Shown one piece after another: positions 2,983 to 64,000 of a stretch of 64,000 bases of DNA. The notes below the pieces were generated by a model, which was not told where the DNA came from, did no database searches, and saw only the letters and a list, made by a program, of their open reading frames with translations. The position numbers and the translations under genes were made by a program. The stretch spans positions 416,001 through 480,000 of the forward strand of contig OY759746.1 of the NCBI GenBank assembly GCA_963662795.1, read 5' to 3'. Within the stretch, counting starts at the first letter, position 1. Every line of letters starts with the position of its first letter. Source of the stretch: Spirochaetia bacterium. Its GTDB lineage: Bacteria > Spirochaetota > Spirochaetia > CADAEX01.

Positions 2983-3292
2983 ACCATTCATCCTGTAATG
3001 CAGGGTAAATGGTTTTCCACCCTAGCAACTTATGTGCCAAAATGCTCAATATTTGTAGCAGAAATTGATTTTTATGTCAATCAGTTCCTGTTATTTTTTG
3101 ATAAATGCATATTGGACTGTTTTTTGTTTTATCTCATTCAATAAATAAGATAAAACACATTTTCCAATATTTTTACAGACAAAAAAATCCCGACATTTTT
3201 ACCAGTTCGAGATTGTTTTTTTCTTTGGAACTATAAGCAATTTGAAAGGCTTGACAATTCCCATCCCACTGCAGAATCATTCTGCGCTATGA

Positions 3293-56444: not shown

Positions 56445-58019
56445 TTAAATATGAATGTTCCAAGGAAGAAGAGCTTCCATATCCGATTGGTCATCCAACT
56501 CGATTAATGGAAGCATTTCAAAAAGGTGGTAGAGATAATCCTGGGGCTCTAATTGATTAGCCTTTGCCGTTTCAATAAGGCTATAAAGTACAGCGCTGGC
56601 ATGAGCACCTTTGGGCGTATCAAAAAAAATCCAGTTTTTTCGTCCAATTACGAATGGCCGAATCGAATTCTCCGCCAAATTGTTGTCAGGAGTTACATAG
56701 ACATATTTCAAGTACCGGACCAATTTCTTATATTCATTGAGTGTATAATTTACGGCTTCTCCCAGCTTTGTTTTAGGAGGAATTGAAATCTCCCATTTCT
56801 TGAGGAGTTGATGGAATTCCTGCCAGAGAGGAATTACCTGTTTTCTACGCTCGGCAACAAAGAGTTCGTCATCAAGATGTTCTGCTCTGAGAGTTTTCTC
56901 TGCTTGATAGATTTTCTGGATAATCTTCAGAGCTTTATCAGCATTGCCTTCACCCTTTGTTATGGCAGCTGCTTCAAAGAATTTTCTTCGGGCATGGGCC
57001 AGGCACCCAACATGATAGAGTTTATATTCTTTGGAGGCTCTGTTATATCCGACATATCCATCTGTCTGGAGAACTCCTTTGAATCCATCCAAAAGGGAAA
57101 GAGGGATTTCTTCTCTTCTGGTCTGAGAGTAATTGAAAAGGACAATCTTCCGGTTCTGATCAGAACCGACGGTTACCCACATAAAGGATTTGTTTTCCGG
57201 TTTCCGGCCGGGTTCCTTTAAGACCTGAACAGTCGTTTCGTCCATATTTATAAGAGGACCTTCACGGGTTTTCTGCCGCATCAGTTCGATCAGAGGTTCA
57301 CAGGCTAAAGCAGCTTTGATTGCCCAGTTAGACATATTTGAACGACTGATTTCGATATCCAATCGTCTGAAAATCCTTTCCATTCGGCAGAAAGGCAGGG
57401 CATCACAGAATTTGCTGACCAGGATATAACTTAACAGACCCGAGGAAGCGATACTTCCGGGAATCAGCCGGGGTGGTACTGGTGCTTTTAGAATTACCGG
57501 GAGTGTCTCATCGTTCTGAAACTCCTCACATTTACAGGGACCATATTTAAGACGAACATGTTTTTTAACAATGATTTTCGCCGGAATAAACTGCAGTTCT
57601 TCCGATTCTTCTCTGCCGATTTCCAGCCTGTCGTTTCCGCAGCAGGGACAGGCTCTTTCTTCCGCCGGCAGTTCATAAATTATTTCTTCCCTGGGAATAT
57701 CCGCGGGAAGTGGTTTTCTTCCTGCTTTTCTTCGGGGATAGGTTTTGATTTCTTCCTGCTCCGGAGAAGATTCTGGTCCCTCAATAGTAGTTGCTGTTTC
57801 TTCGGCTTCATTGAACAGAACCATCTGCTGTTTATCTTCGGGTGTCCATTTCTCGCTGGTTCTGACGTATTTCAGTCTTTTCAGAAGAGCCACTTCTTCC
57901 CAGAGGGTATGAATAACAGACTCTTGTTGCTTCTGTTTTTCCTGGAGGTCCAGAATGAGTTCTTTCAGCTGAGTGACATCATTCGGCAATGATGATAATT
58001 TATTCGCTCCGCTAATCAT
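56445..58019 (-). CDS. tnpC: IS66 transposase TnpC
   Basis: MDETTVQVL, QTDGY, CLAHARRKF, DNNLAENSIRP..GRKNW. Confidence 0.93.
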   Translation of the reverse strand: MISGANKLSSLPNDVTQLKELILDLQEKQKQQESVIHTLWEEVALLKRLKYVRTSEKWTPEDKQQMVLFNEAEETATTIEGPESSPEQEEIKTYPRRKAGRKPLPADIPREEIIYELPAEERACPCCGNDRLEIGREESEELQFIPAKIIVKKHVRLKYGPCKCEEFQNDETLPVILKAPVPPRLIPGSIASSGLLSYILVSKFCDALPFCRMERIFRRLDIEISRSNMSNWAIKAALACEPLIELMRQKTREGPLINMDETTVQVLKEPGRKPENKSFMWVTVGSDQNRKIVLFNYSQTRREEIPLSLLDGFKGVLQTDGYVGYNRASKEYKLYHVGCLAHARRKFFEAAAITKGEGNADKALKIIQKIYQAEKTLRAEHLDDELFVAERRKQVIPLWQEFHQLLKKWEISIPPKTKLGEAVNYTLNEYKKLVRYLKYVYVTPDNNLAENSIRPFVIGRKNWIFFDTPKGAHASAVLYSLIETAKANQLEPQDYLYHLFEMLPLIELDDQSDMEALLPWNIHI

Positions 58020-58064
58020 GTGGATTAGCCTACCAGAAGAAGGAATATATTAATAGTGGTTTCA

Positions 58065-58412
58065 TCAGGAAACAGAAGAATAATTCAACTGTTTATGGGC
58101 ATGCCAGAAGTCGATTCCCTGTAAAAGCATCTGCAATTGTTTAAGGGATATTTCTTTAACATTTTCTTCTGTGACAGGCCAAGGAAAACGATCCTTCTCC
58201 AGTCGTTTGTACCACATGCAAAATCCGTTTCTATCCCAATACAGAACTTTTAAAAGCCATCTCTGTTTATTACAGAAAAGAAACAGAGAACCGGAAAATG
58301 GATCTTGTCCCAGATCTTCTTTGACTATCACAGATAATCCGTTTATCTGTTTCCGCATATCTGTTACCCCGGGCCTGACAAAAATATTTAAATGGGAAAG
58401 GTCAAGGATCAT
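58065..58412 (-). CDS. tnpB: IS66 accessory protein TnpB
   Basis: TDMRK.INGL, DPFSG.LFLFCN, YWDRNGF..WYKRLE. Confidence 0.93.
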   Translation of the reverse strand: MILDLSHLNIFVRPGVTDMRKQINGLSVIVKEDLGQDPFSGSLFLFCNKQRWLLKVLYWDRNGFCMWYKRLEKDRFPWPVTEENVKEISLKQLQMLLQGIDFWHAHKQLNYSSVS

Positions 58413-58526
58413 GATACTTTTCTTAAGGTGTTTAATAATCGAATTAAAGTACTTTCATCAAAATCAGAAGGAACAATAATTCTGGCATCCCCGATAAATA
58501 CTTCGATTGAACCCAACCCAGGTTTT

Positions 58527-60148
58527 CGGAATATGTCAACATAGATGAAGAATGATCTTTGAAATAATTAAGCGGCGGTAGCCCCTTTTTGAGACTTACT
58601 CTTAATCATAGTATCAGCAGATGGATTCAAGTATACAACATGCTCTTTGGGCAGCATTTTAACATGTTTACTCCATCTCAAAGGATTCTTTTTGTATGCC
58701 TTCATCATAGTTTTATTTCGTTTTGTCGCGATCTCTTTGTATTCGCCATTTCTCATCTGTATGGGTGTAATAAAGTTTATTCCTGAGTGACTATGACTGG
58801 TATTATAGAAATCAACAAATGTCGAAAACCATGTTCTTGCCTCTGAAAGTATTTTGAACTTGCCAGGATACGAAACATGATATTTTAAGGTTTTAAACCA
58901 TGATTCAATGAATGGATTGTCATCACTGACTCTTGGCCTGGAATAACTATTACAAATACCAAGATCATAGAATAGAGCCAGTAATGAGATACCTTTCATG
59001 GGATTTCCATTATCAGAATGAACAAAGACATCAGCATAGTTGTTTTCCTTCAGGGCGGCATCAAAAAGTTCTTCTGATAGAGAATCATCCTCTCTATCAT
59101 GAATAGCCCATTTGACGATGCTTCTATCCCAGATATCAATGATGACATATGCGTAGTAGAAGAGGCCTCTGACATTTGTTGGCAACCAGGTTATATCCCA
59201 GCACCAAACCTGATTAGGTCCAGCTGCGACTCTTTCTGGTGGCTTATTATGACTTGTCCCAGGCCTCGTGTTTCCTCGATGATGAATAAGTCTGTTTTTC
59301 TTTAATACTCTATAAAAGGAGCTAACACTGGCAATATAAATGCCTTTACTAAGAAGAGATGCATGAATTTTGTATGGATTATCATCCTTATATTCAATGC
59401 TGCAACTAATTTCGATAATTTTGGCCTCTTCTTCTTTTGATAATTTTCTGGCCACTACTTTTGAACAGTCCTTGCGATTATCAGAAAGATTACCACGTCG
59501 CCATCTTTCAAAAGTGCTGGTTGAAATTTCAAGAGCTTCACAAGCTTTATGAATTCGGGCTCCTGCAGCAGATGCTTCTTTTATCAATTTAACTGCTTCC
59601 TGCCGCATATCCATCGGAATCAGTCGTCCTCTTCGTCCCCCCAAAGAGCTTCTGCTTTTTTTTTAAGAGTATAGAGTGCAGCCATTTCAGCAAGAGCTTT
59701 TTCTTTTTTATTCAGCTCTTTTTGCAGTCGTTTATTTTCTTTCTGGAGATTTTTGATTTTCTGTTTTTCTTTGTGACCTTTATCTTCTACCATGTCTCGC
59801 AGTTCCTGTTTATATTGAGTGATATGTTCAGTGTGCAGACCTTTTTCACGAAGCCATTTCCCCTGATCCTCATTTTTAACAGAACCGGATTCTATAACCA
59901 GATTCAATTTTTCTCGAGGTGACCGATCGGCACTACTTACAGTATTCAGACTATCAAGTGTACCTTCTTTTGCTTTATTCAACCAGTTCCGTAATGTCTG
60001 ATCAGAGACTCCAGATTCAATTGCTATCACATAAGCGGATTTTCCATCTGATTCGAGTACTTTTCTTACTGTTGATTCTTTAAATCCTAAACTGTATCTC
60101 ATAATTGAAACCTCCATATTGGTGCTTTAACTATGTTGACACATAGGG
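58527..60148 (-). mobile_element. IS3-family element, copy 2, intact (orfA 59620-60117, orfB 58568-59644)
   Basis: Near-identical to 35722-37343; TTTT(C) target duplication. Confidence 0.93.
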
Positions 60149-60249
60149 TTTTCCGGAAGTCATATCCCTGATATTTAGCTTTAGCAAATTTTTAGTATTG
60201 GGAATATCCTGTTTCTGTATTTTTATTCGCCATTGCCTGAAGCTCCAGT

Positions 60250-61529
60250 TAAACTGCGCCCTTTTGTCAACACACTTTTGACAAGTGTTTAAGGTGTATC
60301 ACGCCGCCTGTTCTGCCAGGCTGACAGCCTGAAATGATTCATGTATTTCATCAGGAGTCCTGTATTCAAGACTCTGGTGGAAACGCCTGGTGTTAGAAAA
60401 ATTAAAATATTGCGTTACTCCTTCCTTAAGTTCTTTAACTGTTTCATAATGTTTTATATAAATATCTTCGTACTTGAGTGATCTCCAGAGCCTTTCGACA
60501 AAAATATTATCAGGCGCACGGTTTTTCCCGTCCATGCTTATTCTTATGCCATAATCATGCAGTACTTCTGTCCAGCAGGGTGAAGTAAATTGGCAGCCCT
60601 GATCAGTGTTGAAAATTGCAGCCACTCCATACTTTTCAATTGTTTCATGTAAGCAGTTTGCAAATATTGGCGCATCAAGTGTATTGGTTATTATCCAGTT
60701 AAGCACTTTGCGTGAATAAAGATCTATTACCGCCATCAGGTACACATGCCCTGATGGCAGTTTGATATAAGTCAAATCAGCAGCCCAGACCTGATTCGGG
60801 TATCTTATTATTTCCCCTTCAAGCAGATACGGATACTTCTTGCTTTCCTGCCTTGCTTTTGAAAGATTCTCTCCGGGAAATATTGCCATAAGCCCTGCTT
60901 TTCTCATGATTCTGCGTATCTGTTTCCGGGATACACTTAAGCCTTTACTATTGATCTCAAGAGCTATTTTTCTATAGCCATAAAATGGCAGGAGAATTAA
61001 TGTTTCCCTTATCTTTTTAAGTATCTCAATATCATTTTTCTCAATTTTCCTCCTGCTTTTGTAATATGCTGTACTTCGTAAAATAATCAGTGCCTTGCCT
61101 TGTTTTTTTACACTCATGTTTTCATATGCCTTTTCAATCAGAAGGGATCGTTTCCGTATAGTTGTTTGTACTTCTTTTTTAGGAATTCATTTCCGATCTT
61201 CATCTTTCCGAGCGTTTTGAGTGCATCATCGTACTTCTCCTCGGCTTCGCGCTCTGAATCGCTTTTTTTATTGGGCCTTTCAAAGATATCCGGCAGGTTC
61301 TCTATTGCCTGCTTTTTCCATAGGCTGATCTGGTTTGGATGTACGTCATATTTTTTCGCAATTTCCTGTAAGGTTAGTTCCTCTCGAAGTGCATCCAGAG
61401 TTACTTTTGCCTTGAATGCCTTGTCAAATCTTTGTCTTTTTTTCATTGTGTTTTCCGCTCCTTAAATTATAGCGGGTTTTACACCTTAATCATACAGTTT
61501 TTTATGTCTTGTTTTCTGGGCTCATTATA
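60250..61529 (-). mobile_element. IS3-family element (orfA 61138-61446, orfB 60299-61117)
   Basis: Imperfect IRs TAAACTGCGCCC / TATAATGAGCCC, AGT duplication; WAADLTY, NTDQGCQF, VERLWRSLKYE. Confidence 0.88.
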
Positions 61530-61932
61530 AGTAGCTCAGGTTTTCTGCTCGGCAGAACTCCGTCATGGAAAGTTGACTCAGTTTCCATTTTTCTATTTCT
61601 TTTTCCCAGCTTTCTTTGGTCATATGACCTCCTTGCTGGAAAAAAATACAATTTCTAATCAGAGTCAGATAGATGCTGGAGAATTAACGCTTACTTTCTT
61701 TTTTAAGGGGTGGTGAAGTTGACGCTTACTTTAAAATTATATACTTGGCGGTAAAGCAGGCTTCAAAGAAATGGAGCATGCCTCTCCGTGAATGGAAACC
61801 AGCGATGAACCAATTTTTATTGGAATATGGAGAGCGGTTTTCTGATGAATAAAAAAGTCAGTTACACAGAATTATTTACAGGCTCCTGCTTTCTCATTAG
61901 ATTTACGGAGTCCAAAAATTTTACAGGCTCAG

Positions 61933-63735
61933 TTAATATGGAATTGATAAAATAATTTTAGTTCCCACTCCAATTTTACTTATTATCTCAATAGTGCCAT
62001 TAATTTTCAACATAATATCTTTAACAATAGAAAGCCCTAATCCTTTATTGTTAGTATTCTTATGTTTTGTAGAAAAGAAAGGATCAAATACTTTCTTAAT
62101 ATTTTTTTGATTAATTCCGGATCCATTATCAATTATAGTTATATTTAAAATATTTTTTAAATTATAGCAATCAATTTCGAGTAATCCTCCACTTTCCATT
62201 GCTTCAATACTATTAATTGAAATATTATATAGCACTTGCATAATAAGAATATAATTTAAGCTATATATTTTCTTAAAAGGATACTTAATCTCACATTTTA
62301 TATTTTTTTCATTAACATATGGTTCAATTTTATCCAATAAAGTCTTCATCAATTGCCGGATATCAACCCGAATGTTTAGTTTTTTATTATCTGTATACAA
62401 TTGAATAAAATTAATAATTGCTTTTTGCAAGCGTAATATTTCATTTTCAATCTGACATATATGACTTCTTTTATGAATTTCTTCTTCTGTAGATTTTTCC
62501 AATAATTTTAAATAATTCAAAATAATATTTGACGAATTACTAATCTCATGATTGAGTTTTTGTATAAAAATATCATTATATTCACTATATTTTTTATTGA
62601 TATTATATTTTTTTCCATTCATAAACAAAAATAATATATTTCCAGTATTATCTGCATATTTAAAATACTTATTTGTTAATGAAATAATTTCAATGTGACA
62701 TTCTTTTTCATCAGGGAAAATACTTGGTTTAACATCTTTAATTGTCCTATAATTCACCTTTTCAAATAAATTATTTAAATCAATGTTAAGTTTTTTTATA
62801 TCCAACAAATCAACAATATTCTTTCCTGAAATTGTATCTTTTGATAAATTTATTTTATATAAAAAATATTTATTTACAAAAATAATTTTAAACATTGAAT
62901 TTGTTACAAGCATAGGTATATCAATATTTTCTAAAATAGTACTCATAAAGATATTTTCTTCAAATAACTGATTGTTGTGTTCCTCCAGAGTTGATCTACT
63001 AATTAAAGAAGAAAAATAATTTTTCACAAAATCTTCTTTGTTGATTTCATATTGCACCAATTGCTTGGTCACATCTATTATTTTCCCATCATCTAAAATA
63101 AATATTTTTGAAGCGAATTTACTGATTTTATTATCTATTTCAGTTGCAAAATATAATATTGAAATACCTTTATCCCTTAATAGGGATAATAAAAAATATA
63201 ATTTTTCGATCTCATCTGTGTTTAACCTATCTGTCGGATAATTAAAAATTAATAATTTAGGTGAAAAATAAAATACTTTACCTAATTCCAGGAACAATCT
63301 ATCAACTCTGTTATACTTATATATTTTTTCATCCAAATTAAATGAAAGTTTTAAGTGATTGAATATATCGAGTATTTTTTTTTTTGCTTTTTTTATTGAT
63401 GGCAGCAATATTTTTATATTATTACTTATTGTATAGTTTTCTATTATATTTAGATTATCAATTAATCCTGATTCTGAAAATATTGCAGATATTCCAAGGC
63501 GAATTGCTTTTTTAGGTGTTAATTTTTGTATTTTTTTATTTAATATAAAAATATCCCCTGTGTAATTGTGACTCATCCCATAAATTATTCTGGACAATAC
63601 CGATGTACCTGAATCACGTTTTCCCACTATAACTGCTATTTCATCCGGATAAATTGTTAGATTTATATTTTTAATAATATTATTTGTTTTTGTCGTATAT
63701 ATATTTTTCAGTTTTAAAATACTACTCATAATCAT
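61933..63735 (-). CDS. Histidine kinase with an N-terminal degenerate ABC-ATPase domain and a PAS-like domain
   Basis: RbsA/MglA-like N-terminal 215 aa; ILENIDIPMLVTN...IIFVN (PAS); LNHEISN, NISINSIEAM, DNGSGI, FDPFFSTK, GLGL. Confidence 0.85.
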   Translation of the reverse strand: MIMSSILKLKNIYTTKTNNIIKNINLTIYPDEIAVIVGKRDSGTSVLSRIIYGMSHNYTGDIFILNKKIQKLTPKKAIRLGISAIFSESGLIDNLNIIENYTISNNIKILLPSIKKAKKKILDIFNHLKLSFNLDEKIYKYNRVDRLFLELGKVFYFSPKLLIFNYPTDRLNTDEIEKLYFLLSLLRDKGISILYFATEIDNKISKFASKIFILDDGKIIDVTKQLVQYEINKEDFVKNYFSSLISRSTLEEHNNQLFEENIFMSTILENIDIPMLVTNSMFKIIFVNKYFLYKINLSKDTISGKNIVDLLDIKKLNIDLNNLFEKVNYRTIKDVKPSIFPDEKECHIEIISLTNKYFKYADNTGNILFLFMNGKKYNINKKYSEYNDIFIQKLNHEISNSSNIILNYLKLLEKSTEEEIHKRSHICQIENEILRLQKAIINFIQLYTDNKKLNIRVDIRQLMKTLLDKIEPYVNEKNIKCEIKYPFKKIYSLNYILIMQVLYNISINSIEAMESGGLLEIDCYNLKNILNITIIDNGSGINQKNIKKVFDPFFSTKHKNTNNKGLGLSIVKDIMLKINGTIEIISKIGVGTKIILSIPY

Positions 63736-64000
63736 TTATAATAATTACTTATGTTAAGTTCTTTTATCCTTGTGTACAATGTTTTTCTGCTTATTTTCAA
63801 AAGTTTTGCAGCTTTTTCTTTGTTTCCTTCACTTTTTGTAAGAGCTTCAATAATTATTTTCTTCATAAATTTTTTATCATAGTCATCAAATGCAATATCA
63901 ATGTTTTGTTTTTGATTACTTTCTGTATCAATATAAACTTCTTTTGAATATTCAATAATTCTATCTGGAAGATTTTCCTCAGTTATTTCCCGATTATCAC
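63732..64000 (-). CDS. C-terminus of a Fis-HTH activator, probably sigma54-dependent NtrC type (partial)
   Basis: EITEENLP ... IIEALTKSEGNKEKAAKLLKISRKTLYTRIK; TGA overlaps the kinase ATG (ATGA). Confidence 0.85.
   Translation of the reverse strand, partial: DNREITEENLPDRIIEYSKEVYIDTESNQKQNIDIAFDDYDKKFMKKIIIEALTKSEGNKEKAAKLLKISRKTLYTRIKELNISNYYK

Follow-up and report, generated by a model that had tools for sequence, protein, structure and literature searches.

Sensing through a transporter is known from a few signalling systems, PhoR-PhoU-Pst and DcuS-DctA among them. In the Bce modules of Firmicutes a histidine kinase senses through an adjacent ATP-binding cassette (ABC) transporter, as passages of two reports describe (PMC4513084; PMC10314905). 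In CbrA and CrbS an SLC5 symporter domain is fused to the kinase itself, according to excerpts of the respective papers (PMC7096432; PMC5715377). Here we analyze a stretch of 64,000 nucleotides (the window; contig OY759746.1, positions 416,001 to 480,000, of GenBank assembly GCA_963662795.1) from a Spirochaetia bacterium of the lineage CADAEX01, at whose right end lies the gene of a histidine kinase that carries an ABC nucleotide-binding domain (NBD) as its input module. Sequence beyond the window is taken from segment L001, which spans genome positions 477001-497000 (adding 61000 to an L001 position gives the position in window numbering). In the full-text literature searched, which did not cover subscription journals and supplements, a fusion of an ABC NBD with a histidine kinase is not described. 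We show here that this kinase belongs to a large and uncharacterised family, in which it stands out by an ATP site that is dead, although the domain around it is conserved, and by its place inside the operon of a sugar importer.

The protein is a soluble class-I histidine kinase with an ABC NBD as N-terminal module (Table 1). In Pfam, residues 22-165 match ABC_tran (PF00005) with 47 bits against a cut-off of 25 (E 5.2e-12), and residues 497-599 match HATPase_c with 68.7 bits against a cut-off of 26.4 (E 7.2e-19). The NCBIfam models give a consistent partition. Residues 17-242 fall on the N-terminal half of the CUT2 sugar ATPases, with AlsA as best match (E 9.5e-28) and LsrA, YtfR, MglA, XylG and RbsA following in this order, and residues 255-599 fall on AtoS (E 6.3e-32). 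No NCBIfam model reached its equivalog cut-off and all scores are far below it, with 97 bits against 772 for AlsA, where only one NBD is present, and 110.7 bits against 646 for AtoS. An AlphaFold2 model built from 87 aligned sequences has a mean predicted local distance difference test (pLDDT) value of 83.8, with residues 1-225 mostly above 90, residues 226-245 below 50 and a five-stranded PAS-like sheet at residues 275-372. L236, which lies in the linker of low pLDDT, is nearly invariant across the family. Foldseek superposes the N-terminus on FtsE (6z63; template-modelling score 0.83, root mean square deviation 2.8 Å over 225 columns) and on MalK (2.4 Å over 222 columns), and the rest of the kinase on the PAS-kinases WalK, VicK and YF1, with alignments of about 380 columns to the PAS-kinase structures 4i5s, 4gcz and 9a5d. 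Among the 22 matches at E <= 1e-8, no single PDB chain matched both halves.

An earlier reading of the sequence by eye, the first-pass annotation, had proposed an ABC-type N-terminus and the absence of a transmembrane helix. The ABC_tran profile and the NBD fold bear out the former. The latter is in line with the hydropathy of the protein, in which no membrane helix is found and the best 19-residue Kyte-Doolittle mean is 1.26. The same annotation had called a PAS-like segment and a complete HisKA/HATPase module. Here HATPase_c stands, the H-box residues align with those of the family and the model has a PAS-like sheet, whereas PAS_9 (residues 274-326, 21 bits) stays under its cut-off of 27 and HisKA is not among the Pfam matches at E <= 1. 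The DHp region is assigned from H396, E397 and N400, which occupy nearly invariant columns of the family alignment, from the predicted hairpin at residues 379-450 and from the Foldseek superposition that covers the region. The boxes of the catalytic ATP-binding (CA) domain occupy nearly invariant columns as well (N504, N508, D536, G538, G540, F550, P552, F553, G565 and G567).

In a HMMER search of 1.84 billion protein representatives, 85 of the best 150 matches share the NBD-PAS-kinase architecture, being 560-680 residues long and having residues in the family alignment both at the NBD motifs and at the H-box of the kinase. Outside these 85 are 58 proteins of 470-550 residues, five of 851-1624 residues, the 373-residue fragment P0070 and the window kinase itself. 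The 58 comprise 57 proteins of tandem-ATPase size (479-545 residues) and P0084, a kinase-type fragment of 550 residues, and all were cut into the half-profiles used below. The window kinase aligns over its full length with the 85 representatives at 20-30% identity, and it covers positions 6-607 of the 610-position family profile with 474.8 bits. The family profile was also run against 301 sampled Spirochaetia genomes, with at most four candidates scored in each. The score distribution was bimodal, with a match at E <= 1e-140 in about 68 genomes, several genomes carry four or more copies, and more than 100 loci came up in all. Full-length members occur in a KSB3 bacterium, Candidatus Thalassospirochaeta, a Spirochaetaceae metagenome-assembled genome (MAG), a Treponema MAG and an uncultured Sphaerochaeta. 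A wider locus scan with a 17-row alignment was dominated by the kinase pattern, and 5 of its 80 retained loci were full-length, one of them duplicating locus L012. The numbers from the protein and genome searches bear out that the fusion has homologues. Source databases name the members generically, as 'ATP-binding cassette domain-containing protein', 'sensor histidine kinase AtoS' or 'PAS domain S-box-containing protein'. A one-off chimera was considered, as a word-indexed search returned only the kinase itself at full length, but this candidate was rejected because the HMMER and genome searches revealed the family. In seven of the listed family matches, from genomes G288, G215, G099, G111, G088 and G206, the frame is interrupted by one TAA or TAG codon, which could mark a pseudogene, an error of sequencing or recoding.

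Alignment of the window kinase with the tandem ATPases and the 85 family members confirms each of the motif replacements that had been noted by eye. Walker A reads GKRDSGTS, with Lys44 replaced by Thr, Gln87 of the Q-loop is replaced by Ser, the signature region reads YNRVDR, Asp165-Glu166 of Walker B are replaced by Asn-Tyr and His198 of the H-loop by Thr. The domain is an ABC homologue by descent and fold and not an ATPase; with the five catalytic residues replaced, ATP hydrolysis has been lost, and probably ATP binding too. A dead ATP site as the hallmark of the whole family, however, did not hold. The Walker A Lys is kept in 80 of the 85 representatives, the Q-loop Gln in 66, the Walker B Asp in 77, the catalytic Glu in 74 and the H-loop His in 40, and all five are present in 37. 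By this measure the window kinase is a degenerate offshoot of its family. It is not alone in this, as its nearest relative P0070 (46% identical) shows the same five losses and shares new motifs with it at the lost sites, GKRDSG and F-x-YPTD. Since the NBD of these two proteins is better conserved (52% identical, 115/222) than the PAS region (40%, 46/115), the comparison indicates that the dead NBD is under purifying selection. The family tree places losses of the Walker A Lys in three separate clades, each well supported, and the function that the NBD has retained therefore does not need ATP binding. L91, L95, E99 and N100 belong to the columns in which the window kinase, the separate NBD-GAF kinase P0011 and five genuine tandem ATPases do not vary, and all four lie within the permease interface predicted below.

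The NBD of the window kinase scores 161.9 bits on a profile of the first NBD of tandem ATPases (NBD1) and 116.0 bits on a profile of the second (NBD2). This preference is general, since 88 of 88 kinase NBDs score higher on the first-half than on the second-half profile, with a mean gap of 91.5 bits, the tandem ATPases behind both profiles having been picked by their similarity to the window kinase. In the alignment the kinase linker corresponds to a helix retained from the tandem ATPases, where it comes after NBD1. The family thus looks like a CUT2 ATPase in which the second NBD has been replaced by PAS-DHp-CA, and the resemblance to the first NBD of RbsA/MglA-type ATPases, pointed out in the first-pass annotation, is upheld by profiles and fold. 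In a tree of kinase NBDs, first and second tandem halves and one outgroup, the kinase NBDs did not form one resolved clade; the profile comparison, not this tree, was taken as the basis for an NBD1 origin. P0011 (618 residues; Bacillota MAGs) is a distinct fusion of the order ABC_tran-GAF-HisKA_2-HATPase_c, which its source names 'ribose transport system ATP-binding protein'. It has kept the Walker A Lys and is degenerate in the signature, the Walker B Asp and the H-loop. Its existence suggests that NBDs were captured by kinases repeatedly, in more than one event.

The gene that overlaps the kinase gene encodes, over its full length, a sigma-54 response regulator with the Pfam domains Response_reg, Sigma54_activat, AAA_lid_14 and HTH_8, in which D60, the GAFTGA motif and an intact Walker A (GESGTGKE) can be read. 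Its TGA overlaps the kinase ATG at 63732-63735 (ATGA). Of the ATGA-coupled Fis-HTH activator that had been proposed, the overlap and the HTH_8 domain hold, but the order does not, as the activator gene precedes that of the kinase instead of following it. The regulator-kinase pair forms the 3' end of a 13-gene operon on the minus strand, and the REC-AAA+ regulator and sugar ABC genes expected beyond position 64000 are both present in this operon. Genes 1-4 encode a FGGY (xylulokinase-like) sugar kinase, an RbsB-like binding protein, a 508-residue tandem-NBD ATPase and an RbsC-like (BPD_transp_2) permease. The genes of the binding protein, the ATPase and the permease occupy L001 12645-13706, 11048-12574 and 10044-11027, respectively. 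Genes 5-9 encode an SDR protein, a triose-phosphate isomerase (TIM), a DRL-type oxidoreductase and the alpha and beta subunits of a pyruvate dehydrogenase (PDH)-like E1, and genes 10-13 a separate lipoyl protein, the E2 catalytic domain, the regulator and the kinase. From this gene content, the sugar operon encodes an unusual catabolic route. The DRL-type oxidoreductase had no NCBIfam match at E <= 1e-10. The region at L001 4151-9231 (window-equivalent 65151-70231) holds the PDH-like E1 alpha and beta, the TIM paralogue and an E2 that is split into an 80-residue lipoyl and a 212-residue catalytic protein.

A sigma-54-type element, TGGCATATATTTTGCT, lies just 5' of the ATG of the first operon gene (L001 15269-15284), and rpoN is encoded in the genome. 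Directly upstream of this element a 12-bp palindrome, ATAAGTACTTAT, occurs three times (L001 15293-15346; genome 492293-492346). These are its only copies in the 3.93 Mb genome, in which about one would be expected by chance, and they are candidate sites for the regulator. A further exact match to TGGCAY-N5-TTGCW, one of 18 genome-wide, is found inside the window at about 3024-3039 (genome 419039, minus strand).

The same neighbourhood recurs around the relatives. A sigma-54 regulator is encoded directly upstream of the kinase in 10 of 10 fetched relative loci and in four of four named loci (KSB3 bacterium, Spirochaetaceae MAG, Treponema MAG and Sphaerochaeta MAG). A tandem-NBD ATPase adjoins the regulator-kinase pair in all 14, usually in divergent orientation. 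The permease was recognised in 13 of the 14 loci, the contig of L024 ending within the ATPase gene, and the reference binding protein in 11. One genome with three kinase paralogues has a separate transporter beside each of them. We scanned for -24/-12 elements in which GG and GC were invariable and no fewer than 9 of 11 bases agreed with the consensus. In 14 of 15 loci an element of this kind is directed into a neighbouring CUT2 transporter operon, against a background of 18 other matches in 264 kb on both strands; the KSB3 locus had no element under these criteria. At L014 the element belongs to the farther of two flanking transporter operons and not to the one divergent from the regulator. 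No upstream activator motif is common to the 14 promoters, and several related loci have inverted repeats of their own at about -77 to -140. Because of the conserved synteny and the sigma-54 promoters, we regard it as good as shown, within a comparison of loci, that the two-component system regulates the transporter operon. Linkage of the homologues to sugar ABC transporters and a REC-AAA+ regulator, as the first-pass annotation had expected it, is found in 14 of 14 related loci and at the locus described here.

How the kinase might receive its signal is a separate question, and on balance we lean towards the following explanation. The input module would be a descendant of the NBD1 of a CUT2 importer, with a PAS-DHp-CA kinase in place of NBD2, and the kinase and its translationally coupled regulator would control the sigma-54 promoter that heads their own 13-gene operon. 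Through its Q-loop and the groove of its helical subdomain, the NBD would dock on the coupling loop that the CUT2 permease conserves on its cytoplasmic side, and the kinase dimer would thereby be held at the transporter. There it would read the permease conformation that is set by the substrate-loaded binding protein, pass this state via the linker helix and the PAS domain to the DHp, and phosphorylate the activator while substrate is delivered. Because the ATP site is gone in the window copy and its closest relative, the NBD of these two proteins would dock and transduce independently of ATP. Architecture, fold, motif losses, family, synteny and promoters are shown by the analysis; that the two proteins touch, which way the signal runs and what the ligand is are parts of this explanation that we infer. 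An NBD that sits on the coupling loop and reports the permease state seems plausible and is the most economical reading, since the NBD derives from a transport motor, the transporter is a constant neighbour, the domain is conserved despite the loss of the ATP site and the groove residues are kept.

Docking of an NBD on a permease is a feature of solved ABC transporters. In a complex model of the permease dimer with NBD residues 1-245 the median score was 0.66, compared with 0.00 for the best of three controls. This mark is reached by 58 of 80 solved complexes and by 2 of 110 mismatched pairs. The runs agreed in at least 87% of contacts, with a partner pLDDT of at least 79. The predicted interface sets permease residues 192-215 and 271-272 against NBD residues 52-54, 73-78 and 84-111, and on the permease side it holds the invariant G203, N205, A208 and G213. 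Docking on the permease coupling helix, as proposed from the letters, is a candidate reading that draws on synteny and one complex model, and the model may only echo solved complexes.

Several points weigh against this explanation. The pass of the complex model may merely reflect likeness to solved NBD-permease complexes, and it indicates a groove that is still NBD-like rather than proving binding. The predicted interface is no better conserved between the kinase and P0070 (14/27) than the NBD as a whole (115/222). The tandem ATPase of the operon is expected on both coupling loops, so that the kinase must compete or alternate with it. The low-confidence linker at residues 226-245 would fit a tether better than a rigid transmission path, and the PAS domain could bind a cytoplasmic metabolite and may be the real sensor. 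Synteny and promoters show regulation of the transporter operon, not sensing through the transporter. The promoter match of L017 and L018 lies inside the 5' end of a called open reading frame. A mere 9-63 bp separate the ATAAGTACTTAT copies from the -24 element downstream of them, unusually near for an enhancer-binding protein, and the repeats of several related loci lie at roughly -77 to -140, so that the palindromes may belong to another regulator. Finally, no other complete member scores as low in the 301-genome search as the window kinase, which has 474.8 bits where the rest reach at least 543.7.

A bolder form of permease docking, which we put forward only tentatively, would make these kinases 'motor-capture' receptors. 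Here the two NBD1s of a kinase dimer would replace the ATPase on the permease dimer and give a non-transporting complex of binding protein, permease and kinase, in which closure of the coupling helices upon delivery of the substrate switches the kinase.

The strongest alternative denies any connection between the NBD and the transporter protein. The NBD would be an ATP-dependent dimerisation or energy-state switch throughout the family and, in the window kinase, a structural remnant that only aids dimerisation or folding, and the PAS domain would bind a transported sugar or its phosphorylated product in the cytoplasm. The apparently working ATP site of most members (Lys kept by 80 of 85, the full set of five residues by 37) is in line with this, as are the position of a PAS fold between NBD and kinase and the flexible NBD-PAS linker, and regulation alone accounts equally well for promoters and synteny. 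What it leaves unexplained is why the NBD is always of the CUT2 NBD1 type (88 of 88), why the domain was retained through three independent losses of the ATP site, why the NBD is more conserved than the PAS region (52% against 40%) and why L91, L95, E99 and N100 persist despite five catalytic losses. Also, the complex model places the NBD on the coupling loop. We therefore consider this alternative rather unlikely.

Less probable still is that the pseudo-NBD pairs with the real transporter ATPase, or replaces one half of it, so that the kinase would report ATPase cycling, that is flux, as in Bce-type modules. NBDs naturally dimerise head to tail, and the gene of a tandem-NBD ATPase is present in 14 of 14 related loci and in the operon described here. 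Moreover, sensing of ABC transporter flux is established for BceAB-BceS, as far as passages of PMC4513084 report. However, the tandem ATPase already has both halves in one chain, and in the window kinase the Walker A, signature and D-E motifs of the ATP sandwich are gone, and with them what normally holds an NBD dimer together. An ATPase partner is for these reasons improbable, and docking on the permease remains the reading that we prefer.

The genomic setting of the locus supports a horizontal origin. Insertion sequences (IS) flank the 13 genes on both sides (Table 1), and a GC content of about 0.39 gives way to 0.21 at the kinase gene. GC at third codon positions (GC3) is 0.17-0.25 across all 13 island genes, in a genome with a GC content of 0.397. 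With a GC content of 0.222 the kinase gene is the poorest in GC of the island, and few 1.8-kb stretches of the genome are as rich in AT. Neither of the two same-genus genomes contains an orthologue or full-length homologue of the kinase. The horizontal origin that had been suspected from AT content is supported by the flanking IS elements, the low GC3 and the missing orthologue. On the same grounds, namely IS flanks, uniformly low GC3 and no homologue in the genus mates, transporter, pathway and two-component system appear to have arrived together. Directly after the kinase stop codon, at window positions 61447-61932, the composition changes abruptly and short remnants resembling open reading frames are found, which puts the island boundary at, or within a few bases of, the end of the kinase gene.

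That the kinase gene is a decaying passenger of this island which no longer signals, its motif losses and AT content reflecting relaxed selection, is very improbable, for although it has the lowest GC of an IS-flanked island (0.222), the lowest score among complete family members and no orthologue in two same-genus genomes, its 600-codon frame is intact, all kinase boxes and the phospho-acceptor His are kept, the regulator (D60, GAFTGA, HTH) and the translational coupling are intact, a 46%-identical relative has the same five substitutions, the shared GKRDSG and YPTD motifs and a 52%-identical NBD, and the GC3 of 0.17-0.25 in all 13 genes makes low GC a property of the island. A pseudogene was likewise rejected, given the intact frame, the kinase boxes, the regulator, the coupling and the conserved relative P0070.

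Table 1. Features of the kinase gene, its coupled regulator gene and the flanks of the island. Positions refer to the window unless L001 is given.
Feature	Position	Strand	Evidence
Whole gene, 600-residue soluble pseudo-NBD/PAS/histidine kinase	61933..63735 (stop codon 61933-61935)	-	Open reading frame, Pfam and NCBIfam, full-length homologues
Degenerate ABC NBD, CUT2 first-NBD type, residues 1-225	63061..63735	-	ABC_tran, AlsA profile, fold
Walker A remnant GKRDSGTS	63601-63624	-	
Walker B remnant LLIFNYPT	63232-63255	-	
Linker, residues 226-246	62998..63060	-	Low confidence; corresponds to helix after NBD1 of tandem CUT2 ATPases
N-cap helix (247-270) and PAS-like domain, residues 247-372	62620..62997	-	AlphaFold2, Foldseek, sub-threshold PAS_9
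DHp helical hairpin, residues 379-450, H-box HEISN	62386..62601	-	Predicted helices 379-414 and 419-450
Codon of phospho-acceptor His396	62548-62550	-	Family alignment column
CA domain, residues 455-599, N/G1/F/G2 boxes	61939..62373	-	HATPase_c, family alignment
Last 88 codons of 456-residue sigma-54 response regulator	63732..64000, continuing past the window to L001 4102	-	HTH_8, E 7.6e-12
Left flank, three insertion sequences	56445..61446	-	Pfam DDE_Tnp_IS66, TnpB_IS66, rve/rve_3, HTH_Tnp_1
IS66: TnpC; TnpB	56445-58019; 58065-58412	-	
IS3-like pairs	58568-59644 with 59620-60117; 60299-61117 with 61138-61446	-	
Right flank: two IS66 transposase fragments, DDE_Tnp_1 fragment, IS21 istB/istA	L001 15747-19888		

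If the arrangement that we favour is correct, it describes a compact sugar-responsive switch of one kinase, one activator and one sigma-54 promoter that travels with its catabolic operon on an IS-flanked island. The family behind it is found in about a quarter of the sampled Spirochaetia genomes, often in several copies. Within this family the ATP-dead copy is a naturally occurring separation-of-function variant. Should it still signal, the NBD would serve the family in docking and transduction and not in ATP sensing. Should the more tentative capture of the permease by kinase NBDs be true, an ABC permease may pass the occupancy of its binding protein to a cytoplasmic enzyme purely mechanically, without ATP.

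Compared with the systems described so far, the N-terminal module is closest to the CUT2 ATPases (TC 3.A.1.2) RbsA, AlsA, MglA, XylG, YtfR and LsrA, which it resembles in NBD1 profile, fold and the helix that follows. These ATPases continue with a second NBD, whereas the window kinase has a PAS-kinase in this place and five catalytic residues replaced. The C-terminal part resembles NtrB/AtoS/ZraS-type PAS kinases in its AtoS match, the HEINNPL-like H-box of the family, a REC-AAA+(GAFTGA)-Fis HTH partner and sigma-54 promoters, but these kinases carry no ABC NBD. AtoS and ZraS are, in addition, membrane proteins. Within its own NBD-PAS-kinase family the window copy has the same neighbours and promoter type. 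It differs, together with P0070, by the absence of the five ATP-site residues, and its regulator and kinase genes close the operon of the transporter itself at the 3' end, whereas family pairs are usually divergent. What is new here is thus an ATP-dead yet conserved variant of the NBD, and a pair inside the operon of its transporter.

The Bce transporter is an exporter-like resistance pump, and the Bce regulator is of the OmpR type. The window locus, in contrast, combines a binding-protein-dependent sugar importer with a sigma-54 activator. Both have a kinase that is encoded beside an ABC transporter, controls its expression and lacks a ligand-binding sensor domain of its own, and the logic proposed here is that of the Bce modules as the passages cited at the outset present them. 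BceS, as described in parts of PMC10314905, is a membrane kinase that touches the permease via transmembrane helices, whereas the window kinase is soluble and has a fused NBD. The resemblance is one of logic only. CbrA and CrbS, again within the excerpts cited above, share with the window kinase a transporter part that is covalently fused to a histidine kinase as input; they fuse the whole permease of a secondary transporter, while the window kinase has only the soluble motor domain of an ABC transporter and leaves the permease separate. In the known transporter-sensing systems the contact between kinase and transporter had to be found by genetics. The window kinase carries the transporter's own docking domain, and its contact surface can be predicted directly.

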